The position numbers and the translations under genes were made by a program. From Rhodospirillales bacterium (GTDB taxonomy: Bacteria; Pseudomonadota; Alphaproteobacteria; Bin95): DNA of 50,935 bases. Position 1 is the first letter of the stretch; every line of letters starts with the position of its first letter. Below are positions 1 to 47,280 of this stretch, piece after piece. The stretch spans positions 1-50,935 of the forward strand of contig JAYQLI010000010.1 in NCBI GenBank assembly GCA_038143065.1, written 5' to 3'. The notes under the pieces are model-generated. The model did not search any database. It saw only the letters and a program-made list of their open reading frames with translations, and had not been told where the DNA came from.

Positions 1-274
1 AAACATCCATCCCTCCTTGATCTTTCGACTGGACTTCTTTTGCCGTATAGCTGTGTGTAACTGCGCCCGAAGAGTGTCGGGCTCTGCTCGGTACGAGATG
101 ATTGTGTAGACTGGACAATGAGACTTGAAATCTGGATGGTTTAGAGGCTGCCTCGCGTGAAGCGCTAATGTCTGAGTGGCGAGAGGTTGTGGGCCGCCCT
201 CCCCCAAAGCACTTAAGTAAGCCTCTGATGGTGCAGATTTTGAGCCACGCCTATCAGCTGGATTATGTTGGCGG
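1..274 (+). repeat. Repeat unit copy 1: conserved leader plus 5' fragment of a DUF2924-type gene, cut by IS6
   Basis: Aligns by eye with 12943-13215 (aaacatccatccctccttgatctttcgactggactt...gcctatcagctggattatgttggcgg) and more loosely with 46253-46479. Encodes LDGLEAASREALMSEWREVVGRPPPKHLSKPLMVQILSHAYQ. Confidence 0.85.
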
Positions 275-1091
275 GGTGCTGTCAGACTAACGAGCCCAAG
301 CATCAGGATTCATTCGACGCCCATTTCTATGAGGTCACTAAAGAGCGCCACTCGGTGAGAGCAGCGTCACGGTTTAGTTTGAATGTGCTACGTTTTGAGA
401 GTGACCTTTGTGAGTTGAACAGATTGTGATACGAGGCATGAATTGAGGCGAATTTCTGTAGACTGTGCATTCGTCTAAATCGAAGCATGGCCCTTTCTCG
501 TCGTCGAAAGGGTAAATGTGAATTCTCAACTCTGTTGTTTGCCCATCGCTTAGTAACATGCTTTCTCAAACAGCCCAGTTCTCTGGCTGCTGCACCGTAG
601 GACCCAAGCTTATCAGTAACGATTTCGTTGGGTGATCCATAGCGCCACATGGCTTTTTCTTCATGAACTTTAAAGCAGCTTTTTTGTCTCTCTTTTTGGT
701 GACATAGCTTTCTAGCACCTCACCTTCATGATCGACTGCACGCCATAGGTAATGTCTTTCACCATTTATCTTCACAAAGACTTCATCCAAGTGCCATTTC
801 CAATTACTGGACTGCATGCCCCCTGCTCTGCGCTTCTTGATCTGGCTTGCGAACTGAGAACCAAATCTATGCCACCAGTACCGAACAGATTCATAGCTCA
901 CATCGACACCGCGTTCATGCAGAAGGTCTTCTACATTTCTCAGTGAGAGTGGGAACCTCACATACAGCATAACTGCAAGTTGGATGATCTCAGGGCTAGT
1001 TTTGAAATAGCGGAAGGATAAAGGATTAGGCATGGCTAAAAAGCTATGTTCCCTATCGAAATCAGGCAAGGCGATTTAATCTGACAGTGCC
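275..1091 (-). mobile_element. IS6-family insertion sequence, copy 1
   Basis: Terminal inverted repeats ggtgctgtcagactaa (275-290) and ttaatctgacagtgcc (1076-1091) enclose an IS6-type transposase. No flanking target duplication is visible. Confidence 0.9.
327..1033 (-). CDS. IS6-family DDE transposase (frameshift near 655)
   Basis: ORFs 566..1069 and 327..650 join: YVRFPLSLRNVEDLLHERG, WHLDEVFVKINGERHYLWRAVD, IVTDKL, NNRVENSH. The break lies in a T-run. Confidence 0.9.
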
Positions 1092-1135
1092 TAGCTGGGT
1101 AGCCAATTTGTTATGCCAATCGTGGACAACGTGGA

Positions 1136-1151
1136 TTATTCTGACAGAGCC
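1136..1151. repeat. Orphan IS6-type terminal inverted repeat
   Basis: ttattctgacagagcc differs by one base from the end of IS6 copy 3 (ttattctgacagaacc, 47265-47280) and lies 60 bp beyond the end of copy 1. Confidence 0.7.
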
Positions 1152-1284
1152 CACATTTTGATAAATTGGAATCTAACATCACCTAACTAGCAAAATCATT
1201 TAAATAACAAAGTAATTTTTTCTTTTGTTTAATCGTTTTGAGTATAATATCTGAACACATGATCTATAAATTCTGGGACTGAAT

Positions 1285-1932
1285 TTGACAAAAGTATTGA
1301 CGTTTGCAAGCAGCAAAGGCGGGACTGGTAAGTCGACTCTATGCGTTAATTTGTCCGCTTACTTTGCCAAACTAGGCAAACAAGTTATGATTTTGGATGT
1401 CGATCCACAAAGGTCATCCTACGAGTGGATAACAGAAAGCTCAGAAAGTATTTTGAGTGACGTTTCAGCTATTCATTTAACTGATGAAAGTGAGATAGAG
1501 GCTATTATAGAAGCGACCGACTGCGATTTAGTTTGTATTGATTTACAGGAGTATTGATAATTCTCCTTTGTTCGCGTTAGCTATTGCAGATTTAATATTG
1601 GTGCCATGCCGCCCTTCAAGAGATGAAGACATTGTTGGGTTAGGTTGGATAATAAAGCTGAACGAATCTTGCAAACTTCAGTCAAGTACCCAACGGCTGA
1701 AGCAGAGATAAAGGTTATTTTGAATGCAGTAAATGCGCGTTCTGTGGTCTACCAGCACATCATGCAGCAAATTAAGAATGATGATATCTTTGTTATAAGT
1801 TCTCCCATTTCTCAGACCGTGTCATTCGCCGAGGCGAACATAAACCGAGTTTCTGTTTTTGAAATGAGTGGCAAAGCCAAAAAAATGATTTCACAAGTAG
1901 GCGAAGAAATCAGCAGTTACTTATTTAAATGA
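1285..1932 (+). CDS. ParA/MinD-family ATPase (frameshifted near 1550-1640)
   Basis: Deviant Walker A KGGTGKST, ILDVDPQ and CIDL. An intervening frame gives ADLILVPCRPS. The C-terminal part is in ORF 1645..1932. Confidence 0.85.
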
Positions 1933-1989
1933 CGCGTGACATAATAGTAGAGAATAGCACATAGTAAACTTTGCAGGAAGTTCAAAACA

Positions 1990-3329
1990 ATGGGAAAAAA
2001 GTTAAAAGATATTTCTCCCAAAGACGCCGTCATTGCCCAAAGTTCTGACACTGGAAGAGAAAATACAAAAAGTGCAGATAAAAAAAAGGGTTTTGACAAT
2101 CGGTCAAAAGCTCCCCAAAATTTATCGGATATTAAAACGGAAGGATCGCAGGAAAGTGTACAACACTCATCTCAGTCTCAAGAAAACAAGATAGATTATA
2201 ATCAAAAAGAAGCGGCTCTTATAATTGATAAAAAGTCAAGCGCAATTGATGTCAGCGAAGAACTAAACGTTGAACCTCATTCAAAATCCAACAATTTTAT
2301 AGGTACAAAAACCAATGAAATTTTAAGATCGGACTCGTTTAAGAATCTTACCAAAGCTATCTCTTACGATGAACTTTTTACATTTAATCGGGGAGGATTT
2401 CAGTTTGGAATTCCAGTGCAAAACGTAAAAGAAGTTATTCGCACTAATTTGAAATTAACACTTTGCCAGTAGATATGCCTGGGTGTATCGGATCGATAAT
2501 TTACAGAGACAAATTGATTCCCGTATACGAATGCCTAAAATTTGCTCTAGAAGTAGCCACTGATCAAGAGTGTGAATTATCTAAACCTTCATCGCTAATT
2601 CTAGTTAAGATCGACGAAATTGAAGTTTGTTTTACAATTGACCGCCATATTGACGTAATATCAGTTCGAACAGGAAAACAAGAGCTCTTTACAGAGTATC
2701 ACTCTCAGAGAAAGTACGATTATATAAAGCAGACGCTTGGTTACAAGAACTCTAACCTCTTGATTTTATCATTGGAAAGGGTTTGGGCTGATGTCAAAAT
2801 TAATCGACTTAATCAAAGTATCGTGGACCTTACAAAACCGCTTAGTGACAACAAAGCGTCAAAAAGCTTTAAACTTAAAAAGAGTTCATATATGCTCCGA
2901 GTAAATGCCTTTCATTTTGTGGTTGAAATTGCAAAAGTAGTGGAGATTATCCAAGGTTTTGATGTCACGCCAGTATACGGGCAAAGTAAATTTGTGCGGG
3001 GTTTAATAAATCTACGTGGACAGGTTTTGGCGTGTATAGATATTTCAACATATCTCGGCTGCAACGGCTTAATTCTTGATGAGCGCAACAAGTATCTGGT
3101 CCTAAAGTACGAAAATCAAGAATTCGCGTTATGCATTGATGAAGTTTTTGGAATGCAAGCGCATGACCTTAACGGGTTTTCGAATTCATCACAGGTCTTA
3201 TCTGAGGAAATTGCAGAATTGTTTCCCAGTTTAAGTGAAACCAACGCTCAAACGATACTCCAGCTTTCAGTAGAGAGCATAATTCAATCTAGTTATTTAG
3301 AGCCTTTTCATAAAGACAAATTAAATTAA
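1990..3329 (+). CDS. cheW: Tandem CheW-domain protein with a hydrophilic low-complexity N-terminal extension (frameshift near 2462)
   Basis: CheW-like 1: FGIPVQNVKEVI...PGCIGSIIYRDKLIPV. CheW-like 2: IAKVVEII...FVRGLINLRGQVLACID...FALCIDEVFG. Confidence 0.8.
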
Positions 3330-3486
3330 ATTTTGGCGAGCCAACCGGGCACTTACCAATCACAAGATCTAAACAAAATGGTTAGCTCAAATTGATAGTA
3401 AGGTTTATCTAAAGATTCGAGAAATACATCCTAGTTGACAATTGATTTTAATAGTCCGCCGTATAGAAAAATGCTACACTGATCTC

Positions 3487-6400
3487 ATGAAAAAGTATGA
3501 TCACGAAATTTTGCAAATTCGGGAAGAAAAGTTTGAAGAAGAAAATTCTTTGGTTGATGAGATCTATCAAAGTGAACTTGAAGATTTTTTACAGTACATT
3601 TCAATAACGGCTCTAGAAGTAATTAAGATTGTAAAATCTCAACATGATGAGCCAGAGGAAAAATACTCTGAGGCATATCAAAAGTGTTATCTCTGTTTAG
3701 GTATGTCTAGAGTTTTCAAGATAAATAAATTAACGCGCATCCTAGAAATTTTAGAGTTTGTTATAGACTACGGAAGGTTGAATTTAGATTTTTCTAAATA
3801 CTCAATGATTTACCTTATTGAACTAATACTCGACGCTTCTAATACAATCTTGAACGAATTTATTGAGAATGGAACATCCAAATTCAAATTAGACGACATC
3901 ATCTCTGAATGTGAAACATATCTGCAGACGCCGCTAAATCAGCACAACTTGGAAATCGCCTCGTATTATGAAAAAAATGAGGATGAAGTTTTAGATAGTA
4001 CATTGAAGGAAGGCTCCTCTTCAACAAAATCTTCGAACTTCACAAATGAAACTTACGATTTGCAGGAAGAAATCTTACCACCAAAACAATTCGAAGAAGC
4101 GATAGAATTACTTGAGTTTTCTCCGGAGAAGGCTGCTTTAGTTAATGAATTTTGTGCCGAGGCGTCAGATAACTTAGACCAAGTGGAACTGGCACTTATC
4201 GAGTTGGAAGGAAGTGAGAGCCCAACCGCGATTGTTAATCAAATATTTAGAAGTGTTCACACAGTCAAAGGTGGGGCAAGACTGCTGGAAGTTCGAAAAA
4301 TTGAGGCTTTAGCGCACCAAATGGAAAGTCTTCTAGATGACATACGAAGTAATAAAATGTCAGTCAGCGAAAATCTTATTGATATTCTAATGGAAGGTAA
4401 CTCAACGCTTCTGGAGATGATCAAAAAAGTTAGTAGATTCGATGGAATTGACACTAACGTAAATGACCTGATGCATCAGATCTATCTTGCACGGGAAGGG
4501 TGAAAAAGAACGGCCTGACATTTCTGGAATTCAGGAGCAAGTTTCAGACGTTTCGCAAGTAAAAAACCTCGAAGAAAAAATAACTGAAGCCAAACAAACC
4601 TCCGAAAAGTTTTCTAGCGTTTCTACCGAAGAAAATATCCGTGTTCCCGCTGGTAAACTAGAAGAAGTACTCAATACTGCATCACAAGTTTTTATTACGC
4701 GTATAAGATTACAAAACGATACTCAACTTTTAGAAACTGCCATTTCAAAGATGGAGAGATTAACGCGATCTGCAAAGTTAGATAAAGTAGCAGACAGTTT
4801 GATTGGCCTAAATGAGAAATGCGCCGAATTAAGACTTCAACTTATCTCGTTAAGTTCATTGAAAAGCCATGCTTCTGAAAAATCATTGGGAATTGTAAAC
4901 GAAATTTCAGATATTCTAACGAGTAAAAATTTTAAAAATTTGTCTGATTTACCAGCTGAAGCTCGGTTAACCTTGTTGCGCGTTGAAGATATAAGAAAAC
5001 AATTACAAAAAAATGTAGATGAGTTAGAAGGTTTAAGCGGTCGATTACAAACTGGAGCTATGGGTTTCAGAATGGTGCCGGTAGGGCAACTGTTAAACAG
5101 GTTTCCGGCACAAGTAAGAGAACTATCTAGAAAAATTGGCAAAAAAAACTAAACTTTCTATCTTTGGAGCAGACACAGAATTAGATAAAATTTTGATTAA
5201 TCAATTAGCTGATCCACTTGTTCACATTTTGCGCAATTCAATAGACCATGGCCTTGAAGAAGCTGATATACGCAAAAAGCTTGGTAAAAATGAAATTGGT
5301 GAGTTAAAGATTCGTGCATTTTACCAAGGATCAAATGCAATAATCGAAATTTCAGATGATGGAGCAGGAATAAACATAAACAAAGTTTTGGCGGCAGCGA
5401 TAAAACAAAATTTAATTACAGAAGAAGAGGCCAACGGGCTAAATGAACGCGATGCGATAGAATTTGTTTTTGCCCCCGGACTCTCAACCGCAAAAACTGT
5501 GACAGAACTTTCTGGCCGCGGCGTCGGAATGGACGTTGTTAAAACAGCTGTTTCCGCCGTACAAGGCTCAGTAAGAATTGAGAGCCAAAAAAGGGGGTGG
5601 GAACCACAGTTTCAATTAAACTGCCTCTAACTCTAGCAATTGTTGGAATATTATTAGTGGCTGAAAACGGCCACCAGTTCGCTTTTCCGTTTTAAATGTA
5701 ATTGAAGTGCTTTCGATAAAAACAAACGACCTTAAAAAGGTTGGTGATAGCTTGGTTCTCAATTATCGAGGATCAACACTTAATATAAACTCTCTTTCAA
5801 AGTTTTTGGGATTTACGCCAAGTTCATTCGATGAAAGTGAATACTCAGTTGTTGTCATTACAGACGGTGAACGCAAACTTGGTATCATCGTTAACAAAAT
5901 TATGGGAAGGCAAGACGTCCTAACAAAACAGTTTGGGTCTCTTCTAGATCGAATTGAATATATGATGGGTTGTACCATCCTGTCCGATGGAAGTTTAATT
6001 TTAATTTTAAACGTTTGGGAGTTGCTTTCGACAAAACAGGCAAAGCAATTGCAAATTCAAGACCCAATAAAACAGAGTGATGTAGTAACTCAACGATCTG
6101 CGCACAAAATATTAGTCGTCGATGACTCGCCCATGCAAAGAAATCGAATTGGCGCAATTTTGGACCAAGCAGGATATTTATTTGAAACTGCTACAGACGG
6201 ACACGACGCCCTCGAAAAAACTCGATTGACGGAATTTTCTGCATTTTGCGTTGATATAATTATGCCTCTGATAGATGGTTATGAGTTCATCGAGCGACTA
6301 CGCGATGAAGAAGGTTACACAGACGCGACGGTATTTATGATTACTGGAAAAAATATTGAAGAGGGTGCTGAAAAGCGACGGTTATTTGCGCTTCAAGTGG

Positions 6401-6495
6401 ATAAAGTTTTTGAAAAACCGGTTCCTGCAAAAGAGTTTATCGTCGAACTAGATAAAAAGTTGCTGGTCACCGATGCTTGTAAGGGCGCACAATGA
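3487..6495 (+). CDS. cheA: Hybrid CheA histidine kinase (Hpt, dimerisation, HATPase, CheW, C-terminal receiver), split by frameshifts near 4500, 5145, 5590 and 5690
   Basis: IFRSVHTVKGGA (Hpt His), IRVPAGKLE, RMVPV, DPLVHILRNSIDHGLE, SDDGAGI, FAPGLSTA..VTELSGRGVGMDVV, LPLTLAI, GCTILSDG, and receiver ILVVDDS...VDIIMP...KP. Confidence 0.92.
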
Positions 6496-8535
6496 TTAAA
6501 AAAATTCGCAAGCAAGCGTCTCCGAAATAGAAATTCCACAATTGAATTTTGTGGTTTGCATAGAAAACCAGCTTTATAAAAACTATTTAACCAAAGCGCT
6601 CAAAACGTTCTCAAGCTATAATGTTTTATTCATTGATAAAACAACTATAGCGAACGCGGTTGCCGAGAATTCAAACGTCATCCTCATATTACAGTCAGAC
6701 GACGCTGAATACCAACTAATTGAAATTGCAAGTAAACTAAAAAGAGTTTTTTCTAATGAAATTAAAATTATATTTCTCTCTCTTGATTATATTTTAGAGC
6801 CGGAAATTTCGGCAGTAGTAGATAAATTTTTGCAATTTCCACTGCTTGCAGAAGATTTAGTAGATGCCGCGATACAGATCGTTTCACCAAATAATAAAGT
6901 CCTTTTAATTGACGACTCCAAATTAGTGCATACAACCATAGTCGGCGACCTGGATAAGGCTGGTTTCCAAGTGTTTCAAGCTTTTGATGGAGAAGAAGGT
7001 TTTAACAAAGCATCAGAGGTTCATCCAGGCGTAATAATATGTGATATAGAAATGCCAAAGATGAACGGATATGAGACCTGTAAGGCTATCAGAGAGAATA
7101 AAGACTTAGTTGGCACGCATATCATAATGTCAAGTACGTTGGGTTCAGCAGCTGACCAAAAAAAGGGCTTTGAAGTTGGTGTTGACGAATACATTACAAA
7201 GCCCGTTGATATTCCAGAACTAATTGAACGGATAAGTAAGGTTTTTAGTAAGGCAAGTTCTGGTAGAGAAAACATAATTTTGCTGGATAAAGGCACAAGA
7301 TCCATCAAGGATATGAAAATCTCGTTGACCAAGCAGGGCTTTAACGTTCGAGAAACAGACTCATAAAATCTGCAATAAAATCCCTTAATCGTTTATCGGG
7401 CGACTTGGTGATTTCTGAAATTGAACCCAAAGACGGCTCCATAATTGATCTTTTTCATGAATTGAGTTTTTTGGATAAAAGCAAAGCTCCAGATATCCTG
7501 GTAATTGTCGAAGCCGACGACAGATCGGATGCAAGAATGGCAATAAATGCTGGAGCTGCGGGGGTAATTACTAAGCCCTTCACCATGGACGCACTACTTG
7601 CACAAGTAGAACGCTCTTTAGCTGACCGGCGTTCAAGAAAAGAAAAAGAACAACTGGGTCGCTACGTGTCCAAAGCCTCAATGCGAATGGCAATCGAAAA
7701 GGCTATACTTGATAATGACGATAAGCAAGCAAGAGCTGACAGAAAGTCTGCTAGTGTTTTTTTTAGCGACATTGCTAACTTTACTGATAGATGCGAACGT
7801 TACAACGCAAAAGAAATTGTAGAACAAATTAACTTACTTTTCGAAGTCATGACCCGAGTGATAATGAAAAATCATGGTGATATTGACAAATTCATTGGTG
7901 ACGCCTGCATGGCATTTTGGCTGGATGAAGCAAGTATCTCTTCAAGTGATGCAGTACTAAAAAGTATATTAGAGATGCAGGAACAAATTGAAGTTATGAA
8001 CTCCGAGCATCCTATTTTATCGCAAGATCCTATTTTGGTCCGTATGGGTGCAAATAAAGGAGAGGTTATCTTGTGTGATATTGGTGCCGCTGATGCTAGA
8101 GTGGATTTAACAATAATTGGTGACTGTGTGAATGTCGCTGCGAGGCTCGAGTCGGCATCGAAACAATATGGTTTGACCAACTTAATAAGTGAAGAAACTG
8201 TCAAAGGTAATGAAAAAAAATATCTTTGTCGAATTGTTGATAAGGTTCGTGTCAAAGGAAAAATAGAACCTTTAATTTGCTATGAGCTTTTATCCGTATC
8301 TGGGTCTGCAAGTAAAAAACAGTTGGAATTAAAAAATTTATTCGAGATGGGCTTTAGAGACTACCAAAACGGAGAATTTAGAACAGGTCTTGCTAAATTC
8401 CAACAATCCAAAAAACTTGAACTTGATTTAAATTCTGACATCAATCCATCATCAGTATATATTGATAGGTGCCAATACTTGATTAACAATCCACCCAAAG
8501 ATTGGGATGGCATTTGGTCTCTTACAGAGAAATAA
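6492..8535 (+). CDS. Multi-receiver class III adenylate cyclase (frameshifts near 6540 and 7365; exact start uncertain)
   Basis: A canonical receiver (LIDDS...ICDIEMP...ITKP) is flanked by two degenerate receivers. Cyclase motifs: FFSDIANFT, DKFIGDACMA, RVDLTIIGDCVNVAARLES. C-terminal WDGIWSLTEK tail. Confidence 0.85.
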
Positions 8536-8537
8536 CG

Positions 8538-9374
8538 ATGACGAAAGATGTTAATTTATGTGAAAATTATCCGCTCATAAAAAGAAAATTTCTTTCACAA
8601 TTTGGTCTGATTCTTCCAGAAAGCTTGGAAGCTTCACATAAGAGGAAACTATCAGAGCTCAAAAAAAATGGGCCCAAGAAACAATCACAATTTAGTGGGG
8701 TAATTTGTGATAATGAAGCTTTAGACGAATATTTACTTGCGTTAGTTGAAATTTTCACGGTAAACCACACGTCGTTTTTCAGAATAAAAAAACAATTCGA
8801 ATTTCTAAAAAATATTGTTCTGCCTACTTTGACAAAACAATTCGTCAAAAATAATAAGAAATTCAAACTCAGGTTCTGGAGTGCCGCAGCGGCTTCTGGA
8901 GAAGAAGCATACTCAATCATGCTGACTGTTTCTGACTTTGTGAAAGATTGCAATTTGGACTTAAATACTTCAATTCTTGCAACAGATATCGACATCACAT
9001 CACTAGAAACGGCAGCGAAAGGAACGTACAAAAATCATAAAATTGAAGGAAAGTTAGATCCTCAGCACTTCGAAAACTTGATAGAGCAAGCTGAGGGGAG
9101 CCATCAATTCTCGGATGAAATTCGTCAGAAAGTCGAAACCAAGTTTTTAAATTTAAATTCTAAAAACTATAACCTTAACGATAAATTCCACGTGATTTTT
9201 TGTAGAAATATTTTGTTTTATCTATCTGATGATAGCCGGGTCCGATTAACAAAGAACTTGCTGCAGCAATTGGAAGGAGGAGGTTATCTTTTTTTAGGTA
9301 CTAGTGAGACGCGATTAATTCATAGTCCAAACTTGGTGCAGGTTGGGCCCGCAATTTACAAGAAGAGGCAATAA
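8538..9374 (+). CDS. cheR: Chemotaxis methyltransferase CheR
   Basis: TVNHTSFFR, WSAAAASGEEAYSI, ATDID, IFCRNILFY, GGYLFLGTSE. Confidence 0.92.
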   Translation: MTKDVNLCENYPLIKRKFLSQFGLILPESLEASHKRKLSELKKNGPKKQSQFSGVICDNEALDEYLLALVEIFTVNHTSFFRIKKQFEFLKNIVLPTLTKQFVKNNKKFKLRFWSAAAASGEEAYSIMLTVSDFVKDCNLDLNTSILATDIDITSLETAAKGTYKNHKIEGKLDPQHFENLIEQAEGSHQFSDEIRQKVETKFLNLNSKNYNLNDKFHVIFCRNILFYLSDDSRVRLTKNLLQQLEGGGYLFLGTSETRLIHSPNLVQVGPAIYKKRQ

Positions 9375-9381
9375 ATTCACT

Positions 9382-37248: not shown

Positions 37249-37284
37249 TTAGCGGACTGTAGGGCAAGGTGCAGCGAATGGCTA
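37249..37284 (+). repeat. Boundary repeat, copy C
   Basis: ttagcggactgtagggcaaggtgcagcgaatggcta keeps the same register as copy A and starts 10 bp after the recombinase stop. Confidence 0.55.
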
Positions 37285-38342: not shown

Positions 38343-38344
38343 AC

Positions 38345-39781
38345 TTACCCCCAATCGCTAACGGCCTTGACCTCAAGGAACTCCTCAAGACCCCAGGCAC
38401 CACCTTCACGGCCATTGCCCGACTGCTTCATACCGCCAAAAGGCGAGCCCGCGCCGCTGAATTTGCCGTTCATCTCGACCATACCAGATCTTAGCTGTCG
38501 CGCCACGCGACGAGCTCGTGCCTTGTTCGAGGTCTGTACATAATTCGTAAGACCATAGGACGTGTCGTTCGCCAAGTTGATTGCCTCTTCTTCGCAGTCA
38601 AAGGGTGTTATACATAGCACAGGGCCCGAAGATTTCTTCCCTCCAAATCGTCATATCTTGCGTGACGTCGGCAAAGATTGTGGGACGCACAAAGTAACCG
38701 TGTTCAGCCCGTCGGGACGACCAGACCACCCGCAATCAATTTGGCACCTCATCTATGCCACGCTTGATCAGGAATTGGATCTTGTTCAACTGTACTTTAG
38801 ATACAACCGGACCGATCTGACGGCCCTCAATATTTGCTGGACCGCCCTCTGTTTTCTCCGCCACTGTACGGGCTGTTTCAACGGCATGCTCGTATATCGC
38901 GCGGTCGACCAACATCCTGGTTGGTGCGTTGCAGGACTGGCCCGAATTGTTTAAGCAGTGCCGAACGCCTCGCGTGACGGCCTTTTCATCGGCATCAGCA
39001 AATATGATGTTGGCTCCTTTGCCTCCCAGTTCGAGGCTAACGCGTTTCACGGTATCTGCCGCAGCCTTGCTGATCGCCGACCCCAGCTCGGGCGTTGAAC
39101 CCGGTGAAGCTGACCATGTCCACGTCCGGGTGCGCGGTGAGATGCGCTCCAACACCGGCACCATCACCGTTCACCAGATTAAATATCCCAGGCGGAAAAT
39201 CTGCCTCATCAATCATTTCAGCCAACAGAATGGCGCTGAGCGGGGACAGTTCCGAGGGTTTCAGCACTACCGTGCAGCCCGCGGCCAGCGCCGGGGCGAC
39301 CTTCAGCATCACCTGGTTCATCGGCCAGTTCCATGGGGTGATCAGGGCACAGACACCGGGACGGGTCGTGTATAATCATATCGCCGGGTGCGTGATCGCC
39401 CAAAGGACGTTCAAAGACAAAAGCTTTGGCTGTCCGAATAGTGTTTTTCAGATGTCCTGCTCCAGAGCCGACCTGTGCGGTCTTTGCCAGTGTGATAGGC
39501 GCTCCCATTTCTCTGCTGATAGCCTGCGCCATGTCTTCGGCCCGTGTCTTATAGACTTCCATCAACCGCTCCAATGCGGCGATCTTTTCCGAAGGGTTGG
39601 TTGCCGCCCAGCTTGGAAAGGCGTCCTTAGCCGCAGCGACGGCCATGTCGACATCAGCGACGCCACCCAAAGTGATCGTGGCAATCTTTTTTTCTGTGGA
39701 CGGGTTCTCCACCGGCATTTCGCGCCCGTCGATCGAGATGACCCATTGGCCGTTGATATAGTGTTTGGTTGTGTCTTGCAT
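38345..39781 (-). CDS. Aldehyde dehydrogenase (frameshifted)
   Basis: [54 protein letters not shown]. Confidence 0.88.
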
Positions 39782-39796
39782 GGTGATTCCTGTTAG

Positions 39797-41401
39797 TCAG
39801 AGTTCAGTATATTCCCCGGCGACAAAACGATCGCGGAGAACAAATTTCTGGATTTTGCCTGAGCCGGTTAGGGGGAACTCCTCGACCTGCACCCAAACAT
39901 TCGGCGTTTTTTGTGGTGACATATTTGCGCGGCAATGCGCGTGCAGCGTACCCTTGTCGAGCAGTCCTGTGCTCCGGATGAACGCGCCTATAACCTCTCC
40001 CCATTTTGGGTCTGGCAGGCCAACGACAGCGACCTCGGCCACGCTTGCGTGTTCCAACAGGCAGTTTTCAATTTCAGCGGGAAAATGGTTCTCGCCTCCG
40101 CGGATGATCATTTCTTTCACACGACCCGTGACTGTGACGTAGCCTCGTTTATCCATTCGACCAAGATCGCCGGTGTGCAGCCAACCCATTGCGTCTATGG
40201 TCTCGGATGTGGCCTTCAGGTTGTCGTTGTATTCCAGCATGACGCAGGGGCCGCGGGCACAGATTTCCCCGACCTCTCCTACGACGACGGCGCAATTGTT
40301 ATCGACACTGCGAATTGAGACCTCAGTCTGAGCTACCGGCTGGCCTGCCGTGTTGCAGATGTCGTCAATGGTGTCGTCTAGATGATGTTGTGTGATCACC
40401 GGACAATGCTCGGTCTGGCCATAGAGGGTGGAAAACCTGGCACCCATCAAGTTCTGTACCCTGCGCACCAATTCGGGCGCCACCATTGAGCCGCCGCAGC
40501 TGACGAGCTTCAGAGCCGACATGTCTCGTGGACGCGCATTTTGTGCATCGAGCAAGGCCACCACCATGGTCGGCACGCCAAGGATGATGTCAGCGCCGCT
40601 CGCTTCCAACTGGTCAAGCACGACATCCGGGTCAAACAGGCTGACCAACACCATTCGGCACCCCGCCTGAAGGCATCCAAGCGTGACCATCCCGCAGCCC
40701 GAGGTGTGAAACATCGGCATGATGTTGACCCAGGTGGTCGCCTCGGTTGTCCCGCAGCGACCCGCGTAGAACCGGGCGTTGTTGACCAGTCCGCGATGGC
40801 TCAGGACTGCCCCTTTGGGAAAACCGGTGGTGCCGGAGGTATACTGGATCATCGCCGCGTCGCCTAGATCGGCATTGGGCAAAGCAATCGGGCGGGAGCC
40901 TTGTGTGTAAAGCGCTACGCTTTCCATGTCCGTGACTTCGCGAACCGATGGGATGCTCGCGGCGACTTCAGTCCCAATTTGGCTCATGGGGTTGCCGCGG
41001 AATTCTTTGACAAGGAAAAGTGCAACCGCGCCGGATTGTTCCAGCACGTAGGCTAGTTCGCGTGCCTGAAAGGCCGGGTTAGCAGTCACCAGTACTAGAC
41101 CGGATAGGGCACTGGCATATTCCAATAGGACCCATTCTGGGCTGTTGGGCGACCAAACTACTACCCTTTCGCCAGGCGCAAACCGTGTGGAGAGCGCCAT
41201 GGCTAGTCTCTCAGCATTTTGCATAAGTTCGGCATAGGTCCAGCGGCGCCCCTTGGTGCCGTTCTGTTTGACTTCGACCAAGGCCTCCGCTTCTGGTCGT
41301 GCCGCCGCGACCTCGCGCAGCAATGCTCCGATGGTGATGTCTCGCGTTTCTATGTCGGACTGAGGCTGAGCATGGGAGGTGGTGAGGTCTAAGTCATACA
41401 T
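39797..41401 (-). CDS. AMP-forming acyl-CoA synthetase
   Basis: YTSGTTGFPKG, YGQTE, WLHTGDLG, GRVKEMIIRGGEN, TGSGKIQK. The likely start is MYDLDL at 41401. Confidence 0.92.
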   Translation of the reverse strand: MYDLDLTTSHAQPQSDIETRDITIGALLREVAAARPEAEALVEVKQNGTKGRRWTYAELMQNAERLAMALSTRFAPGERVVVWSPNSPEWVLLEYASALSGLVLVTANPAFQARELAYVLEQSGAVALFLVKEFRGNPMSQIGTEVAASIPSVREVTDMESVALYTQGSRPIALPNADLGDAAMIQYTSGTTGFPKGAVLSHRGLVNNARFYAGRCGTTEATTWVNIMPMFHTSGCGMVTLGCLQAGCRMVLVSLFDPDVVLDQLEASGADIILGVPTMVVALLDAQNARPRDMSALKLVSCGGSMVAPELVRRVQNLMGARFSTLYGQTEHCPVITQHHLDDTIDDICNTAGQPVAQTEVSIRSVDNNCAVVVGEVGEICARGPCVMLEYNDNLKATSETIDAMGWLHTGDLGRMDKRGYVTVTGRVKEMIIRGGENHFPAEIENCLLEHASVAEVAVVGLPDPKWGEVIGAFIRSTGLLDKGTLHAHCRANMSPQKTPNVWVQVEEFPLTGSGKIQKFVLRDRFVAGEYTEL

Positions 41402-42184
41402 CGCTGAAATCGCCTCCTCGACCCTTGCCATTGGAGAAGCGGGCTGCACCCTCAATACCAATGCTGACTTCATCTTTGCTGCCCTTCCATTCCTGCTGCA
41501 GCGCTTCACGCATTGAGAGCCCATGTTGGGTCCGCACCGAACGTCTATCTGCGCGCATGCAGCTTTGCGGGAAACGGGCGATGTCATGGGCAAGGGCTTC
41601 GGCTTTGGCACGTGAGTTGCCTTCGGGCACGACGTATTCGCACAGGCCAATCCGGAGCGCCTCATCCGCATCGATGCGGCGCCCGGTCAAGATCAGGTCC
41701 ATTGCGCGGCCTTCACCCACCAAACGCGGAAGACGTACCGTACCTCCGTCGATGAGTGGAATACCCCAACGGCGGCAGTAGACACCCATGAAGGCGTTTT
41801 CTTCCATCACCCGGATATCGCACCAAAGCGCAAGTTCCATACCACCTGCCACGGCAGGCCCCGATACTGCGGCGATCACGGGTTTGCTGAGTTCCAACCT
41901 GCTGGGCCCCATGGCCGCCATCGGTGGCTCACCCTCATTCGGAAAGTCAAACGGATCAAGCGCTTCGGCACCAGCAAGGAGGCTGCATGCTTCAAATCCC
42001 AGCCAGCACAAAAAGCACCGCCTTCGCCCCAAAAAACAGCAACGCTTGCTGTTTCATCTGCATCAAAGGACTGGAATGCTTCAAATAGTGCCTTGGCGCT
42101 TTCGGGGTCCATGGCATTACGCGCCTCTGGTCGAGAATGTATTACGGTCCAGACGGGGCCGTCCTTTTCAATTCGTACACTCAT
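41394..42184 (-). CDS. Enoyl-CoA hydratase/crotonase family protein (frameshifted near 41980-42030)
   Basis: RPEARNAMD, AFCAGWDLK, KPVIAAVSGPAVAGGMELALWCD, DGGTVRLPRLVG. Confidence 0.88.
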
Positions 42185-43795
42185 TGCAGAACCTCTCCAT
42201 AGTTGCCTGCAATGAATTTATCACGAATGGCAAATTTCTGTACTTTACCGGAGCCTGTCAGAGGAAAGTCCGGCACATGCACCCAGACAGATGGCGTTTT
42301 TTGTGCGGACAGAAGCGCCCTGCAGTGGGTACGCAAATCGGCTACGTCAAGCGGTTGGTCGGACAGGATGAATGCCGCGATCACCTCTCCCCATTTCTCG
42401 TCCGGTAAGCCGACTACGGCGACTTGTGCCACATGCCTGTGGGTCACCAAAGCCGCTTCGATTTCAGCTGGAAAATGGTTTTCGCCGCCGCGAATGATCA
42501 TGTCCTTAACACGACCCGTCACTCGCACGAACCCTTGGGCGTCCATTGTGCCCAAGTCTCCGGTATGGAGCCATCCGTCGCTATCAATGGCCGCGGCGGT
42601 TGCTTCTGGATTTTCGTTATAGCCGATCATCACTGCATAGGATCGCGCGCAAATCTCGCCCACGTCCCCTATTGGAAGAACCTGATTATCTTCAGGTGAA
42701 CGGATTGAAACCTCTGTCCACGGCAGCGGCTGGCCGGCTGTCTCCACGATCTGCTCAAGTGTCGCTTCAATGGGGTTTAGACAGATCATTGGGCTGTGTT
42801 CAGTTTGTCCAAATGCGCTAAGAAGATGACATCCCAAACGGTCCCGAACCCGGCGGACGAGATCGGGTGGCACCGGAGCGCCGCCGGTTGTTATGACCTT
42901 AAGCGAGGACATATCGCGCGGTATTTTTTCTAGAGAGTCTAGAAGATTAAACAGCATGGTGGGCACTGCAAAACAGGTTGTAACGCCCTGTTCCTCAATT
43001 AAGCGTGCAAAGACATCTGCATCGAACCTCTTTATTAGTAGCATTTTACATGCAGCTTGGAAGGCACCCTAAGGCCCCGGTCGCACAGCCTGCAGTATGA
43101 AATAGAGGCATGAAGTTAGCCCAGACCGAATGCGGACCAACTTGCTTACGTGTGCAGAACAGGCGTGCGTTGTTTACTAAATTCTTATGGCTGAGTACCG
43201 CGCCCTTTGGAAATCCCGTTGTTCCCGATGTGTATTGGATCTGCGCGGCATCATCTGGCTGAACATCTGGCAGCACTTTTGGCCGTTCCCCAGTGGCGTA
43301 GAGCGCATCCTCGTTTTCCAAGTTGATGATCTCGCGCAACGCTGTGTTGCCGCTTATCGCCTGGTGTGCAATTTCAGCCATAGGGTTACCCCTAAACTCA
43401 TCAACCATAAATAGGGCGACTGCTCCAGACTGTTCCAGAACATATTTGAGTTCAGAGACCTGAAAGGATGGATTGGCTGTCACGAGAACTAAACCCGCTA
43501 GACCACAGGCATATTCTATGAAAATCCACTGCGGGATATTGGGCGCCCAGACGACGACCTTCTCGCCTGCCTCAAAACGCGAAGAAAGCGCTTCAGCTAG
43601 GTGCTCGGCTTGTTCTAGCAGCTCTCCGTAGGTCCACGATTGGCCACAATCACCGTTGTCTGCGATATCCACCATCGCAACAGCGTCAGGGTAGCTGGCC
43701 GCAGTCTTACGCAGCAAGTCTCCAACCGTAATGTTTAGGACTTCAGCATCGCTCTGCGCGGGGAAGTGCGAAAGGTTGAGCTTCACATGGTACAT
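42181..43795 (-). CDS. AMP-forming acyl-CoA synthetase, paralog of 39797-41401 (frameshift near 43055)
   Basis: YTSGTTGFPKG, FGQTE, WLHTGDLG, IIRGGENHFPAEIE, TGSGKVQK. Confidence 0.9.
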
Positions 43796-43797
43796 GT

Positions 43798-45017
43798 CTA
43801 TTCGGCCGCGATCGGGTTGGTTGGGATATCCACCAGTTTGCCCCTAGGGATCAAGCGGTCAGCGTCATACATTGGCAGAGTACAGAGCTCGCCTTCTTGA
43901 ATAGAACCGTCTGCACAGAGCACATTTACCTTGGTGCCGGGTCCTATGGCGGGGTCGTCCATACGAACAATGCAAACACCGCAATTTTGGTATGGTGAAT
44001 ATCCTGACGAGCAAACGCGTCCAACAACAGTTTCGCCCACCCACATTACGCGACCCAATTGAGAAACACCCCCCATTACACGCATACCCCAGGTTTTTGA
44101 TGATTTATCTGCAACCTCTAATGCTTTGCGTCCGATGAAATCACGATTGTCGAAGTCGACAAAATTCCCAAGTCCAGCTTCGAAAGGAGTGGTTTCCGCC
44201 CCAAAGTCCGATCCTGCATTTAATAAGCCAGCCTCAATCCGACGTGCGCGGAATACCGGTGTCCCGGTGAGTAAGATATGGAACGCCGAACCGACCTCCA
44301 TGATCCTGTCGCCAATGGCCGCAATATCTGTGTCTGGAAGTAAGTATACTTCCCAGCCAAGTTCGTTAGTAAAGCCTGAACGGCTGATCCAACAAGTCTG
44401 ACCAGCAATAGAAACCTCGGCGCAGTCGAAATAGCGGAATGGATCTGGCATTGGTCTGTCGAGAACAGCGGCAAGTAGCTCCAGTGAACGTGGGCCCTGT
44501 ATCTGACTTACCCAGACATTCGGATCATGGATTTTTACATCCAACCCTTCGGCATGTGCTTTGTACCAGCTGAAAAGATCGCCGTCTGCCTGTGCCATCC
44601 AAAAACGATCTTCAGATAATCGCAGCAATACCCCGTCTGTGATCATCCCCCATCATGATAGCATGCGAATTGATATGAGCACCGTCCTGGTTTGACCTTT
44701 GATACATTACGAGTGAACACTTTGTTCAAAAGTGTTTCAGCATCTGGTCCGCTTATCTCAATTGGTAACTCACCTGTGTGACGAAAAATAACATTCGTAC
44801 GTACCGCCCAATACATTTCATCGTCTGACGCAGTGCTTAGTGCTTCGGGTGTTAGTCGAGAGTTGTAAAGCGTATATTCTGGATCATGTGGCAGCTCCAT
44901 GTAACTCAGTGGGTGTGCTGGCATTGTACGCGCAAGTTCGCGCGGGCGCGCGCCCTTGTTCAGCAAAGCCTTGGCAACGAAACGATAGTGGGAGAGGTCG
45001 GTTGTCATGTTATTCAC
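43798..45017 (-). CDS. GcvT/DmdA-superfamily aminomethyltransferase (frameshift in C-run near 44648)
   Basis: EISGPDA, DGVLLRL, QIQGPRS, ISRSGFTNELGWEVY, RRIEAGLLNAG.D, LPMYDADRLIPRG. Confidence 0.85.
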
Positions 45018-45160
45018 CGTTCAGAGTTGTTAGACGCCTACGGGTAATCTTCGAAAAAGATAGATGATTACCACGCATAAAAAAATACATATTTGGTTTT
45101 GTGGCCTTGGCGCAAATCTAATGATTTGCACAAATCGTTCGAAAAAATTAGACAGTATTA

Positions 45161-46045
45161 ATGCGCTTTCGTTCTTATGATTCTCTCAAGATTTTCGATA
45201 CCGTTGCCCGCAGTCTGTCGATGACCAAGGCAGCGGACGAAGTGCATCAATCGAAAGGGTCGATCAGTTACCAGGTGGGCAAGCTTGAAGCCGACCTCGG
45301 ATTTCGCCTGTTTGAGCGTGCGCACGCTACACTGGAACTCACAGAGGAAGGGCGCAGGTTGTGGCATGTGTCCCAAACGGCCCTGAGTCAGATCGATCGT
45401 GAAATCGAAGACTTGCGTGGCACTACCTCCGGTGCCGTGACTATTGGTGCATTGACCTACTTCTCGTCACGCTGGCTGTCGCCAAGGCTCACCCGCTTCT
45501 TCGAGGCCAATCCCGGTATCAGCCTACGGATCGAACCGCTCAACTCCGTTGACATGATGAGATCCTTGAAAATCGACATGGCTGTACTTTGGGGAATTGG
45601 CGGCTGGGAGGGTCATAAAAGCGAACTTCTTCTTTCCCTGCCTGCCGTTCCAACCGCAAACCGCGTACTTGCAGAGCAGGTAAAGCAGCTTGGGTTGGCT
45701 GAGGCGGTCAGACAGCTTCCGCTCTTGGGAGACAGCTCCGGCGATGCGGGTTGGCGCGCCTGGCACAAAGCCGCGGGGTTACCTTACGCGCCCAGCCGGG
45801 CCAGCTTAACGATCCCGGACTCGAACAGCCGCGTTCAGGCGGTGGTGGATGGCCAGGGGATCGCCCTGTGGGATGATTTGGTTGCGTCTGAATTTGGGAA
45901 TGGAACGCTTGTTAGATTATCTGATGTCAGAGTTGAAAACGCGGGTTACTTTCTCGTTTTTACGGATCAGCCGATGTCTCAAAGCGCAGAGGCATTCCTG
46001 GACTGGTTGGTGGTTGAAAACGATCGCAGCGAGATGCCGGCCTAA
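45161..46045 (+). CDS. LysR-family regulator (GcvA-like), intact
   Basis: SMTKAADEVHQSKGSISYQVGKLEADLGFRLFER, WLSPRLTRF..ANPGI; divergent from the catabolic operon. Confidence 0.92.
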   Translation: MRFRSYDSLKIFDTVARSLSMTKAADEVHQSKGSISYQVGKLEADLGFRLFERAHATLELTEEGRRLWHVSQTALSQIDREIEDLRGTTSGAVTIGALTYFSSRWLSPRLTRFFEANPGISLRIEPLNSVDMMRSLKIDMAVLWGIGGWEGHKSELLLSLPAVPTANRVLAEQVKQLGLAEAVRQLPLLGDSSGDAGWRAWHKAAGLPYAPSRASLTIPDSNSRVQAVVDGQGIALWDDLVASEFGNGTLVRLSDVRVENAGYFLVFTDQPMSQSAEAFLDWLVVENDRSEMPA

Positions 46046-46252
46046 AATCCTGCGGGTGTGCGGCGCTTGAACGGCTGGTTTGGAGAAATCTGGCCCGTTG
46101 CGAGTCCCGTGCCGTATCTGCGAAGGATTTCTGCGTCCGCAATAGCTGCAACTGCAGTCAAACAGCAGCGCGTTGGCTCATTGTCCAAGCAGAGCTACAA
46201 CACACATCTAAGATTATGACTTTCGGCAGAGCTCTGCTGTTGAAACTTTTCC

Positions 46253-46479
46253 ACTGGACTTCTTGTTCTCCAAGCCTGTGTGTAGCTGTGTGCCGAATAG
46301 TTTCGAGCTCTGCTCAGTACAAGATGATTGTACGGAGTGGATTAGATGATGAGACTTGATCTGGATGGTTTAGAGGCTGCCTCGCGTGAAGCCACTAATT
46401 TGGCGAGAGGTAGTCACCTCCCCCAAAGCACCAGCAAACCCTGGTGGTGCAGATCCTCAGCCATACCTATCAGCTGGAC
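46253..46479 (+). repeat. Repeat unit copy 3: leader plus degenerate DUF2924-type fragment, cut by IS6
   Basis: Similarity to copies 1 and 2 begins at actggactt and includes atgagacttgatctggatggtttagaggctgcctcgcgtgaagc. Confidence 0.8.
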
Positions 46480-47280
46480 GGTGCTGTCAGACTAAGTAGC
46501 CCAAACATCAGTAATCTATTGAGGGTAAGTCCACAAAAGAACGCCACTCGCTGAGAGCGGCGTCGCATTTTTGAAAGTGCTACGTTTTGAAAGTGACCTC
46601 TGTGAGTTGAAAAAGATTGTGAAACGAGGCGTGGATTGCAGCGAACTTTTGTAGACTGTGCATTCGTCTAAACCGAAGCATGGCCCTTTCTCGTCGTCGA
46701 AACGGTAAGTGTGAATTCTCAACTCTGTTATTTGCCCATCGTTTGGTAACTTGCTTTTCTGAACAGCCTAGCTCTTTTACTGCTGCACCGTAGGAGAGAA
46801 GCTTATCTGTGACGATCTCATTTGGTGATCCATAGCGCCATCGCTTTTTTCATGAACTTTAAAGCAGCTTTTTTGTCTCTTTTTTTTGGTAACGTAGCTT
46901 TCTAGCACCTCGCCCTCATGATCGACTGCACGCCAGAGGTAATGTCTTTCCCCATTTATTTTCACAAAGACTTCATCCAGGTGCCATTTCCAATTACTGG
47001 AGTGAATACCCCTGCCCTGCGCTTTTTGATCTGGTTTGCAAACTGAGAACCAAATCTATGCCACCAGTACCGAACGATTCATAGCTCACATCCACGCCTC
47101 GTTCATGCAGGAGGTCTTCAACATTCCTCAGTGAGAGCGGAAACCTAACATACAGCATAACTGCAAGTTGGATGATCTCAGGGCTGGTTTGAAATAGCGA
47201 AAGCATACTGGATTGGGCATGGCTAAATGGCTATTTCGCCGTTATCAATGTCAGGCAAGGCGGTTTATTCTGACAGAACC
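46480..47280 (-). mobile_element. IS6-family element copy 3 with fragmented transposase
   Basis: Inverted repeats ggtgctgtcagactaa (46480-46495) and ttattctgacagaacc (47265-47280); same transposase motifs as copy 1. Confidence 0.88.

Follow-up and report, generated by a model that had tools for sequence, protein, structure and literature searches.

The three direct repeats in the window, i.e. the entire stretch of 50,935 nucleotides of contig JAYQLI010000010.1 from a Rhodospirillales bacterium that was analysed, are probably scars at which an IS6-type insertion sequence met an unrelated serine-recombinase element; the multi-gene blocks between them are, in this same reading, segments of the flexible genome that were strung together by IS6 in an array that is inert today. 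Repeat search and a three-way alignment located three direct copies of one unit, composed of a non-coding head, the 5' part of a DUF2924 gene and an IS6 copy, at 1-1091, 12920-14096 and 46192-47280. The alignment comprised 1374 columns with a mean column identity of 80 %. Pairwise identities were 92 % (copies 1 and 2) and 86 % (copies 2 and 3) for the IS6 part, 90 % and 76 % for the DUF2924/leader part, and each copy differed by 8–24 % from the other two and from all further copies of this genome. The original prediction of three diverged units in the same orientation was thus borne out, and all three were located, only that copy 2 begins at 12920, not at 12943. The apparent start of copy 1 at base 1 results from the contig beginning inside the repeat. 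The sequence ACTGGACTT is common to all copies and the similarity of copy 3 begins about there, in agreement with the prediction. The conserved sequence of the DUF2924-recombinase element family starts at ACTGGACTT as well. To its left stand several different sequences: an IS6-like head, a tRNA-Phe 3' fragment (C48, C11 and the HIMB11 locus L036) or other heads (copy 3 and L086; L037).

The element stub of copy 1 (1..274, plus strand) retained the IS6-like head in its final 27 nt only, then a leader that contains the palindrome GCCCGA-N6-TCGGGC, and the 5' portion of DUF2924, to which PF11149 gave a weak match at 132-305. In copy 2 the stub (12920..13364, plus strand) comprises the IS6-like head at 12920-12969, the leader and a DUF2924 5' part whose ORF at 13033-13422 runs into the IS6 and was assigned to DUF2924 by Pfam (E 8.6e-13). 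The stub of copy 3 (46192..46479, plus strand) has an alternative head of about 60 nt (46192-46252), in common with the metagenome locus L086, followed by the leader and a DUF2924 remnant. The IS6 copies lie on the minus strand and were delimited by alignment and PF13610. Copy 1 (275..1091) has both inverted repeats and a broken transposase frame, and a solo IS6-type right inverted repeat (1135..1151, minus strand) was found 44 nt past it by end-motif search. Copy 2 (13365..14096), which adjoins a truncated E2 acyltransferase gene, has an intact left repeat and lacks about 80 nt at the right end including the inverted repeat; this truncation points to at least one further event there that was not of the IS6 type. 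Copy 3 (46480..47280) has both inverted repeats and a heavily decayed transposase gene.

The affiliation to IS6 was supported by the IS6-type DDE domain PF13610 at 566-1069 (E 5.7e-21), 13687-13905 (E 3e-29) and 46777-46965 (E 5.3e-10), by plasmid look-alikes annotated as 'IS6 family transposase', by a length of about 0.8 kb (817 and 801 nt for copies 1 and 3) and by short terminal inverted repeats starting with GG. The left end reads GGTGCTGTCAGAC..., the right end GGCACTGTCAGAT or GGTTCTGTCAGAA on the reverse strand. Left ends begin at 275, 13365 and 46480, and a search with GGTGCTGTCAGAC yielded 6 matches at up to three mismatches against 0.18 expected, a number reached in 0 of 100 shuffles. 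A single intact transposase frame of about 230 aa is absent from the three copies, the longest stop-free stretches being 169, 89 and 92 aa. With the C32 copy and its 222-aa frame as reference, copy 1 contains at least two frame changes and one stop, copy 2 four in-frame stops and a frame change, and copy 3 five stops in each aligned frame. Homopolymer errors in the assembly, the cause of the frame breaks in block 2 described below, may account for some of these breaks; the in-frame stops remain. A protein with Resolvase and Recombinase domains was absent from the window. The assembly, 97.6 % complete, holds no complete DUF2924 and no cognate recombinase, the sole trace of the latter being a C-terminal remnant of 45 aa at C48:9844-9978. 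The IS6 array is now inert, its transposase genes being decayed and no cognate recombinase remaining.

Intact versions of the truncated element are present in genomes of the Roseobacter group and in marine metagenomes. The element is a compact unit of 2,465 bp with a head, a leader, a DUF2924 gene (152 aa, E 2.9e-27), an overlapping gene for a large serine recombinase of 535 aa and a non-coding tail that ends with ...GTGGTGGC|GG. The recombinase at L031:6420-8027 carries the domains Resolvase (PF00239, E 2.8e-38) and Recombinase (PF07508, E 1.6e-08); no zinc-ribbon family was listed for it at E <= 0.001. Five copies in CP179201.1 match L031:5886-8350 at 87–98 % identity within unrelated flanks. 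The supposition that the window units are recombinase-less derivatives of a DUF2924-recombinase element, joined to an IS6, was supported by the intact versions, which the prediction had proposed to look for and which exist in relatives but not in this genome. All 13 right junctions that were read fall into two classes, a tRNA 3' tip or an IS6 left repeat. The tail abuts the IS6 left repeat from its first G in six loci (L031, L032, L034, L169, L174 and the degenerate L176), a full tRNA-Ser(GGA) in four (L035, L080, L081, L082) and tRNA-like 3' fragments in three (L033, L180, L106). TGGCGG is found at both element ends in L033 and L035, and G039 has an empty tRNA-Ser site. Defined ends with a short core at both junctions, together with an empty site, occur in the relatives only, whereas the window keeps head sides only. 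The two loci with both ends readable, L033 and L035, present a sharp 2,465-bp unit without cargo; this cargo-free status holds for these two, the left flanks of L031, L032, L034 and L040 being without TGGC. In the element family, the recombinase module adjoins the target, and cargo, if any, would precede DUF2924 and would not lie downstream of the IS6.

In the window, the deletion of the recombinase extends as far as the IS6 end. One and the same end of IS6 truncates DUF2924 at a different point in each copy, as predicted: after ...GTTGGCGG in copy 1, ...ATGTGGAA in copy 2 and ...CAGCTGGAC in copy 3. In coordinates of the 2,465-bp unit, this IS6 end was found at 2465 (no loss), 2396 (G037:2860146), ~515 (C48), 447 (copy 2 and L037), ~297 (copy 1), ~290 (copy 3) and 224 (L040), a series that fits an erosion from the IS6 end. 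We infer that intramolecular transposition of the IS6/IS26 type, i.e. adjacent deletion, removed the gene of the recombinase together with the distal part of DUF2924; each deletion would have stopped exactly at the intact IS6 end and reached a different depth in DUF2924. A simple IS6 insertion is expected to produce an 8-bp target duplication, of which there was no trace, again as predicted: the 8-nt flanks GTTGGCGG/TAGCTGGG (copy 1) and AGCTGGAC/ATAAAAAC (copy 3) differ, and so do those at L031 and L040. The lack of such duplications is expected after cointegrate or adjacent-deletion events of the IS6/IS26 type.

Copies 1 and 2 are cut just after ATGTTGGCGG and ATGTGGAA, which are similar to the tail end ATGTGGTGGCGG of the unit; such positions would suit deletions made by the recombinase. 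An authorship of the recombinase instead of IS6 is rather unlikely. The tail|IS6 junction, a mimic of the joined ends of the element, would have recombined with look-alike sites inside DUF2924, and the enzyme would have deleted its own gene. Besides the two resembling motifs, this is favoured by the cut position of copy 2, which recurs in HIMB11 L037 in a stub of another subfamily (77 % versus 88 % to C48), and by the L037 junction ...GGAATGGTGCTG, which equals the product of a crossover at GG. However, the motif match was spotted after the fact on two to three junctions, copy 1 carries two G in excess of those predicted by a crossover at GG, and the cut points of copy 3, L040, L170 and C48 are without a clear look-alike. 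The complete IS6 end at every junction is predicted by IS6-made deletions as well. The stubs of copy 2 and L037 are only 77 % alike, their IS6 91 %, and over 15 pairs of six composites the similarities of stub and IS6 were uncorrelated (r = -0.06). The shared cut and the missing correlation indicate that the cut points may not be random deletion ends, or that IS6 bodies were swapped.

Block 1 (1092..12919, GC ~0.38) encodes a ParA-like protein, a Che-type chemosensory cluster (CheW, CheA parts, receiver domains, a receiver-cyclase, CheR, CheB and MCP) and an ORF of 216 aa of no assigned family; matches were obtained in 0 of 9 same-genus genomes. Block 2 (14122..30014, GC ~0.49) carries genes for a 2-oxoacid dehydrogenase, an aldehyde dehydrogenase, an M24 peptidase, an ABC transporter and dehydrogenases. 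It has a copy with 96 % identity at C17:9134-25020, which is free of IS6 and of the unit and continues past the IS6 boundary at 14122. Block 3 (30551..46191, GC ~0.57) includes genes for a CoA-ligase, a GCV_T aminomethyltransferase, an acyl-CoA dehydrogenase, an AMP-binding enzyme, an enoyl-CoA hydratase and a LysR regulator. The join of blocks 2 and 3 (30015..30550) is a GC step from 0.42 to 0.58; at ~30.0-30.5 kb neither an IS6 end, a DUF2924 stub nor a shared repeat was detected, thus not every join carries a unit. The units had been predicted at the joins of compositionally different blocks, which holds for two of the three internal joins but not for this one.

The blocks had been interpreted as recombinase-less modules of end site, DUF2924 stub, IS6 and cargo, stacked in tandem and exchanged by a serine recombinase in trans like giant integron cassettes. 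We consider this quite improbable. The co-oriented units at two of three internal joins would agree with it, the different sequences left of ACTGGACTT are the pattern a recombination site would give, and blocks 1 and 2 differ in their abundance in the wild (see below). Against it, this genome has no cognate recombinase that could act in trans, and the stubs keep the head side only, the tail side needed for excision-type recombination being absent from the window. Cargo as part of the module is contradicted by the intact relative, which in L033 and L035 is a unit of 2,465 bp between two TGGCGG motifs, and the cassette array by the join without a unit and by the unit-free C17 copy of block 2 that overruns the boundary. 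Module shuffling, which relatives were predicted to exhibit, could not be seen, since none of the 9 same-genus genomes and of the 3 genomes with the unit contained the blocks as such, and no shuffled arrangement occurred there. Integrons likewise have co-oriented units separated by a repeated sequence; unlike them, the window has no IntI-type integrase, attI, attC at cassette ends or promoter logic, its blocks are multi-gene segments of 12–16 kb, and one join is without a repeat. Among the 75 ORFs, Pfam revealed no integrase domain except transposase cores of the IS3 and IS6 types. Sites of the attC type were absent, and the repeat search detected no inverted repeat pairs of at least 40 nt in the window.

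In four runs of four studies, metagenome depth was ~10/25/4/7 for block 1 versus 135/128/77/22 for block 2, determined on assembled contigs, not on raw reads, and with the source sample possibly among the runs. In wild metagenomes block 2 thus reached 3–19 times the depth of block 1, which was rare; an independent variation of both blocks in wild populations is supported. The same difference could arise from an assembly chimera, in which blocks of different strains or organisms were joined via the repeat. The GC content of block 1, 0.38 against ~0.47 for the genome, and its missing matches in the 9 same-genus genomes would also fit a chimera, the bin has a contamination of 5.5 %, the 16S-like copies on C39 and C49 share no more than 89 % and 84 % identity with the main 16S, and a 6.7-kb wild contig of X12 continues leftwards unlike the window at 14122. 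Yet the divergence of the copies by 8–24 % renders each a unique sequence that an assembler can cross, and 19 runs of 11 studies contained 53–78 % of the words sampled from the region 11500-15500, which includes unit 2 and both flanks. A real strain-specific insertion would also cause unequal depth. The chance of a chimera is accordingly very small.

For the reading of the repeats as IS6 scars, the orientation of the IS6 copies is of interest. Within each of the 8 contigs that have at least two IS6 loci, all loci share one orientation (28 of 28 over these contigs, 3 of 3 in the window). In G037 the plus strand carries all copies of the unit from 2.33 to 2.99 Mb, and hand counting of IS6 matches at 2.2–3.0 Mb gave mostly plus (~17 vs 6). 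Only 4 of ~14 type-A IS6 left ends of this genome bear a stub, also by hand count, which weighs against this reading. We infer that the blocks are not part of the repeats; they would have been strung by co-oriented IS6 as in cointegrate or translocatable-unit arrays of the IS26 type. Directly oriented arrays and translocatable units of the IS26 family are described in PMC4196232 (Harmer, Moran and Hall 2014) and PMC7885326, pseudo-compound transposons, translocatable units and adjacent deletions of IS26/IS6-family elements in PMC4196232 and PMC7986276 (Varani et al. 2021). The window shares with them direct IS6-family copies that flank unrelated segments, no target duplications and neighbour genes cut exactly at an intact IS end. 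It differs in its copies, which are 76–92 % alike over the unit and 86–92 % over the IS, not identical at the reacting ends, in its decayed transposase genes, and in its setting, the flexible genome of a marine alphaproteobacterium instead of resistance plasmids. A further difference is that each IS6 of the window is joined, always at the same end, to a stub that derives from one particular second element. The array in the window can be a product of IS26-type reactions, not one active now.

Transposons with large serine recombinases are known, namely Tn4451 with TnpX and Tn5397 with TndX. Phage integrases of the A118/Bxb1/phiC31 type, which are large serine recombinases, are treated in Rutherford et al. 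2013 (PMC3783163). The intact relative resembles such elements in a protein with Resolvase and Recombinase domains, in its sharp ends and in a short core that recurs at both junctions (GG or TGGCGG). In the tRNA-Ser site the motif CAGAC is located 5 bp nearer to the core than in the element head; this agrees weakly, on a match of only five bases, with the displacement by 5 bp that PMC3783163 describes for the zinc-ribbon motif of attB and attP. Unlike such elements, the unit measures only 2.5 kb, is without cargo and contains DUF2924 as a constant partner gene; it targets a tRNA 3' tip and IS6 ends, and the window keeps no recombinase. In phage WO and Symbioviridae, the gene pair of DUF2924 and large serine recombinase is an integration module in Alphaproteobacteria. 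There the module belongs to a prophage of 65 kb, whereas here it is a stand-alone unit of 2.5 kb; the passages of PMC9203015 on these phages do not mention DUF2924.

The element head of ~50 nt agrees with an IS6 end in 25 of 34 bases, a likeness that suggests a docking of the element at such ends. The location of one mobile element at a constant site within the terminal repeat of a second is also known from IS4321/IS5075 of the IS1111 group, which target Tn21-type terminal repeats. PMC11187229 likewise deals with insertion sequences directed at the termini of other mobile elements. Unlike in IS4321/IS5075, not a DEDD transposase with guide RNA but a serine recombinase or the IS6 transposase would do the targeting here. 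Either the recombinase would accept the IS6 end in place of the similar head of its own element, or the IS6 transposase would treat the excised circle as a translocatable unit. We propose tentatively that the mimicry of IS6 ends in the head may allow the 2.5-kb element to dock exactly at the outermost base of an IS6 end. It would then reside both at tRNA-Ser tips and at IS6 ends and could travel between replicons on IS6 arrays, and IS6 would erode it to the stubs.

Contig C10, which the window presents in full, is one of 52 contigs of the 4.63-Mb assembly and contained three direct copies of one composite repeat, located at 1-1091, 12920-14096 and 46192-47280; copy 1 begins at base 1 because the contig starts 23 nt inside the repeat. 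In each copy, a head and leader without coding sequence are followed by the 5' portion of a plus-strand DUF2924 gene (Pfam PF11149) and by an IS6-family insertion sequence with a minus-strand transposase gene (PF13610). Between copies, the IS6 parts were 92 % and 86 % identical and the element stubs (head, leader and DUF2924 5' part) 90 % and 76 %. The IS6 left end, GGTGCTGTCAGAC, starts at positions 275, 13365 and 46480 and interrupts DUF2924 at three different points, and comparison of the flanks revealed no 8-bp target duplications at the window IS6 copies. The co-oriented, diverged repeats of the original prediction, cut differently by the same IS6 end without target duplication, are thus real. 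The motif noted there at the left edge, ACTGGACTT, is the point where strong conservation begins in both subfamilies seen (27 copies aligned; copy 3 filtered out). The IS6 of copy 2 has lost its right end, and all three window transposase genes carry stops and frame changes; an open transposase frame of 222 aa was kept by one copy, on C32. The leader also bears, 5' of DUF2924, a palindrome GCCCGA-N6-TCGGGC (68-85, 13010-13027 and 46294-46311, in copy 3 in the form GCCGA...TCGAGC), present in all related loci with an invariant stem and a variable loop (27 copies, both subfamilies); it may serve as protein-binding site or regulatory hairpin. An IS3-family element (HTH_Tnp_1, HTH_21 and rve domains) lies at 47868-49072 and has copies of 90-95 % identity on C12 (two) and C23.

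The intact form of the truncated part was found in relatives. A search with the copy 2 peptide against one genome per species yielded 11 loci, six in the complete chromosome of Rhodobacteraceae bacterium nBUS_22 (CP179201.1) and two in strain HIMB11. Five nBUS_22 copies share exactly the 2,465 bp of locus L031:5886-8350 at 87-98 % identity, with unrelated flanking DNA on both sides. In this unit, a head starting GGTTCTCTCAGAC and the leader precede DUF2924 (152 aa), which overlaps the gene of a 535-aa protein carrying Resolvase and Recombinase domains; the tail ends ...GTGGTGGC followed by GG. Next to this GG core, in the predicted circular joint, the head would read TTCTCTCAGAC. In marine metagenomes, 572 stretches encode a relative of the unit, the best 80 of which were kept. 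Large serine recombinases partnered with DUF2924 are known from phage WO, and the window repeats are remnants of an element of this kind. The DUF2924 partner is not known to have a role, and the literature matches on DUF2924 were all on Wolbachia. The proposal of recombinase-less derivatives beside IS6 is borne out by the intact unit in relatives, while no intact DUF2924-recombinase locus turned up in this genome: the genome search found no complete DUF2924, the cognate recombinase is represented by a 45-aa remnant only, and another Recombinase-domain match, on C44, had no similarity to the unit recombinase at E <= 0.001.

The same IS6 end meets the unit at position 2465 (no loss), 2396 (G037:2860146, nBUS_22), ~515 (C48), 447 (copy 2 and HIMB11 locus L037), 297 (copy 1), 290 (copy 3) and 224 (L040). 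Intramolecular transposition of the IS6/IS26 type, i.e. adjacent deletion, keeps a complete IS6 end and produces no target duplication. The series of cut points, with a complete IS6 end and without target duplication, matches such a process, and judged by what is known of the family, adjacent deletion by IS6 would have trimmed the unit to different depths. A live rival are deletions made by the recombinase at look-alike sites within DUF2924. Stub and adjacent-IS6 similarities are uncorrelated (r = -0.06, 15 pairs), which counts against a simple IS6 deletion and leaves a co-duplication of stub and IS6 as one piece unsupported by the identity matrices. The cut position common to copy 2 and HIMB11 L037 recurs in stubs of different subfamilies, and the cuts of copies 1 and 2 (window 265-274 and 13355-13364) follow directly after ATGTTGGCGG and ATGTGGAA, both resembling the tail end ATGTGGTGGCGG; ATGTTGGCGG and ATGTGGAATGG are internal DUF2924 look-alikes and candidate recombination sites. 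Therefore, recombinase-made deletions stay in competition with adjacent deletion by IS6, and the two are not separable because both leave a complete IS6 end. At C11:22734 and C48:10805 of the same genome the IS6 left end is preceded by no more of the unit than the final letters of its tail, GTGGC or TGGC, which may be the remains of completely eroded units. Wild contigs also contain short joints of IS6 parts (side 21-38 nt), among them an IS6 right end joined through GTGGC to an IS6 left end, which may be such remains too; these joints were not used as evidence since the IS6 depth of 12,000-27,000 allows an origin anywhere in the samples.

Thirteen right-hand junctions of the unit were readable; two candidates per genome were scored in 401 genomes. 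A complete tRNA-Ser(GGA) adjoins, with its 3' tip, four of them (L035, L080, L081 and L082) and short tRNA-like 3' fragments three (L033, L180 and L106). TGGCGG is present at both ends of L033 and L035, and the empty tRNA-Ser site is present in genome G039; the unit at the tRNA tip in those copies is an insertion without cargo. At the remaining six junctions the tail is followed by the IS6 left inverted repeat from its first G: L031, L032, L034 and L169 in nBUS_22, L174 in G273 and a degenerate case, L176, in G338. The IS6 bodies behind the identical tail-IS6 junction differ, L031 being ~70 % identical to L032 and L169 over 110 nt with unit tails 89-96 % alike, an indication that unit and IS6 came together more than once or that the IS6 was swapped. 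Of 34 bases of the unit head, 25 agree with the IS6 left end, a value reached in none of 100,000 shuffles. It is thus possible that the serine-recombinase element docks on IS6 ends. In PMC3783163, attB and attP of serine integrases are described as differing by a 5-bp shift; a similar offset is seen for CAGAC, which in the tRNA-Ser site is 5 bp closer to the GG core than it is in the unit head, weak evidence as a five-base match. Two other readings were considered and rejected. The head as a decayed tRNA-Ser 3' half agrees in length and end letters, but its sequence is much closer to the IS6 end. tRNA-Phe as attachment site was suggested by a fragment of it next to the leader on C48 and C11, which is one old event common to C48, C11b and HIMB11 L036; against it also stand the IS6-like head in most copies and the tail at tRNA-Ser. 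Locus L176 (G338:C69, 1427-1665) holds a unit tail of ~165 nt ending ...ATGGTGGCGG before its degenerate IS6-like end, and TGGCGG with the head-like TCTTGCCAGAC ~225 nt 5' of this tail; it may be a miniature derivative without recombinase. Among the papers listed, neither a head copy of the IS6 end nor exact docking at IS6 ends was found described, which is no proof of absence in print.

The DNA between the repeats has a GC content of ~0.38 (1.1-12.9 kb), ~0.49 (14.1-30.0 kb) and ~0.57 (30.5-46.2 kb). The claim that the units sit at compositional joins holds for the joins at copies 2 and 3 and fails at the step of ~30.0-30.5 kb between blocks 2 and 3, where neither a stub nor an IS6 end within three mismatches was present. 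Block 2 (14122-30014, 15.9 kb) has a 96 % copy on C17:9134-25020 with 565 substitutions and 11 indel events; C17 carries no IS6, and its copy runs past 14122 into the remainder of the E2 gene, which in the window is truncated by the IS6. Together with the genome searches and the depths given below, the unitless GC step and this copy say that the blocks are not cassettes. The original prediction was partly right, in the recombinase-less derivative beside IS6, and wrong in its central point, cargo modules arrayed as in an integron. As blocks, these segments were not found in nine same-genus genomes or three unit-bearing genomes, searches in these 12 genomes giving only gene-level matches of 64-90 % over short distances. 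Four metagenome runs, each from a different study, gave a depth of ~10, 25, 4 and 7 for block 1 and ~135, 128, 77 and 22 for block 2; wild block-1 contigs end at 12915, just short of the head, and one 6.7-kb wild contig extends left from 14122, unlike the window. In nature, the two blocks thus vary independently of each other, which fits a strain-specific, IS6-bounded insertion. As to gene content, the low-GC region 1285-12082 (0.38) is a Che-type chemosensory cluster that begins with a ParA-like gene and includes a receiver-adenylate/guanylate cyclase gene at 7405-8535; it is absent from the nine same-genus genomes and rare in wild samples. The high-GC block encodes at 32666-45017, by Pfam domains, three GCV_T-family aminomethyltransferase stretches, AMP-binding CoA ligases, an AidB-like acyl-CoA dehydrogenase and an enoyl-CoA hydratase fragment, a gene set that presumably resembles the DMSP demethylation genes of roseobacters.

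The unequal depth also leaves room for a small chance that contig C10 is chimeric. Against a chimera, every repeat copy differs by at least 8 % from all other copies in the genome, and is thus unique sequence through which an assembler can pass, and 19 runs from 11 studies, among which the source sample may be included, hold 53-78 % of the words of 11500-15500. Unit 2 was bridged by none of the wild contigs listed, an outcome without weight because contigs break at repeats. Nearly every gene of the window appears broken, and long open frames are scarce on the small contigs. Mass gene decay, a pseudogene graveyard, was considered and is countered by the nature of the breaks: each of the 11 indels that separate block 2 from its C17 copy falls into a homopolymer or GC-dinucleotide run, different genes are broken in each copy, and wild contigs supply the missing base at 15316, 17668 and 18104 and are without one base at 5141 and 6012. 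Therefore the frame breaks of block 2 and C17 are assembly errors, and the cargo genes are probably intact in nature; credible decay is limited to the IS6 transposase genes with their in-frame stops. 16S rRNA-like sequences at C39:28707-30197 and C49:1470-2931 share only 89 % and 84 % identity with the two 16S copies of the 2.86-Mb contig C35; foreign contigs in the bin, or rRNA remnants that were acquired, may be their source.

IS6 loci are co-oriented within every contig with at least two of them (28 loci on C10, C11, C12, C28, C38, C42, C45 and C48). The IS26-family literature (PMC4196232, PMC7885326) names directly oriented copies between unrelated segments as the mark of cointegrate and translocatable-unit reactions. 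The co-orientation therefore belongs to the IS6 copies and not to a cassette system, and the window resembles an IS26-type array that is old and no longer active. All nBUS_22 unit copies from 2.33 to 2.99 Mb lie on the plus strand, and IS6 matches in this genome are mostly plus at 2.2-3.0 Mb (~17 versus 6, hand count) and mostly minus at 1.2-1.35 Mb; IS6 orientation may be linked to replication direction. Many partial copies of the tRNA-Phe 3' part are spread over the small contigs C2, C3, C5, C7, C8, C9, C11, C12, C33, C46 and C48, and an integrase-like open frame comes after the sole intact tRNA-Phe (C35:2571672-2571747), a pattern that suggests repeated integration of islands at tRNA-Phe.

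For users of this assembly, most broken reading frames have to be seen as homopolymer errors rather than gene decay. The tempting idea of an integron of giant cassettes is removed as unsupported and gives way to a testable picture: in an alphaproteobacterium abundant in estuaries and along coasts, IS6 copies of one orientation would stitch the flexible genome together, a second, small element having been caught time and again at one and the same end of IS6. The interest is moderate and lies chiefly in the possible docking of the serine-recombinase element on IS6 ends. If true, one mobile element would use the terminal repeat of another as landing site and vehicle, which would be of interest for the site choice of serine integrases and for IS26-type arrays outside clinical plasmids.
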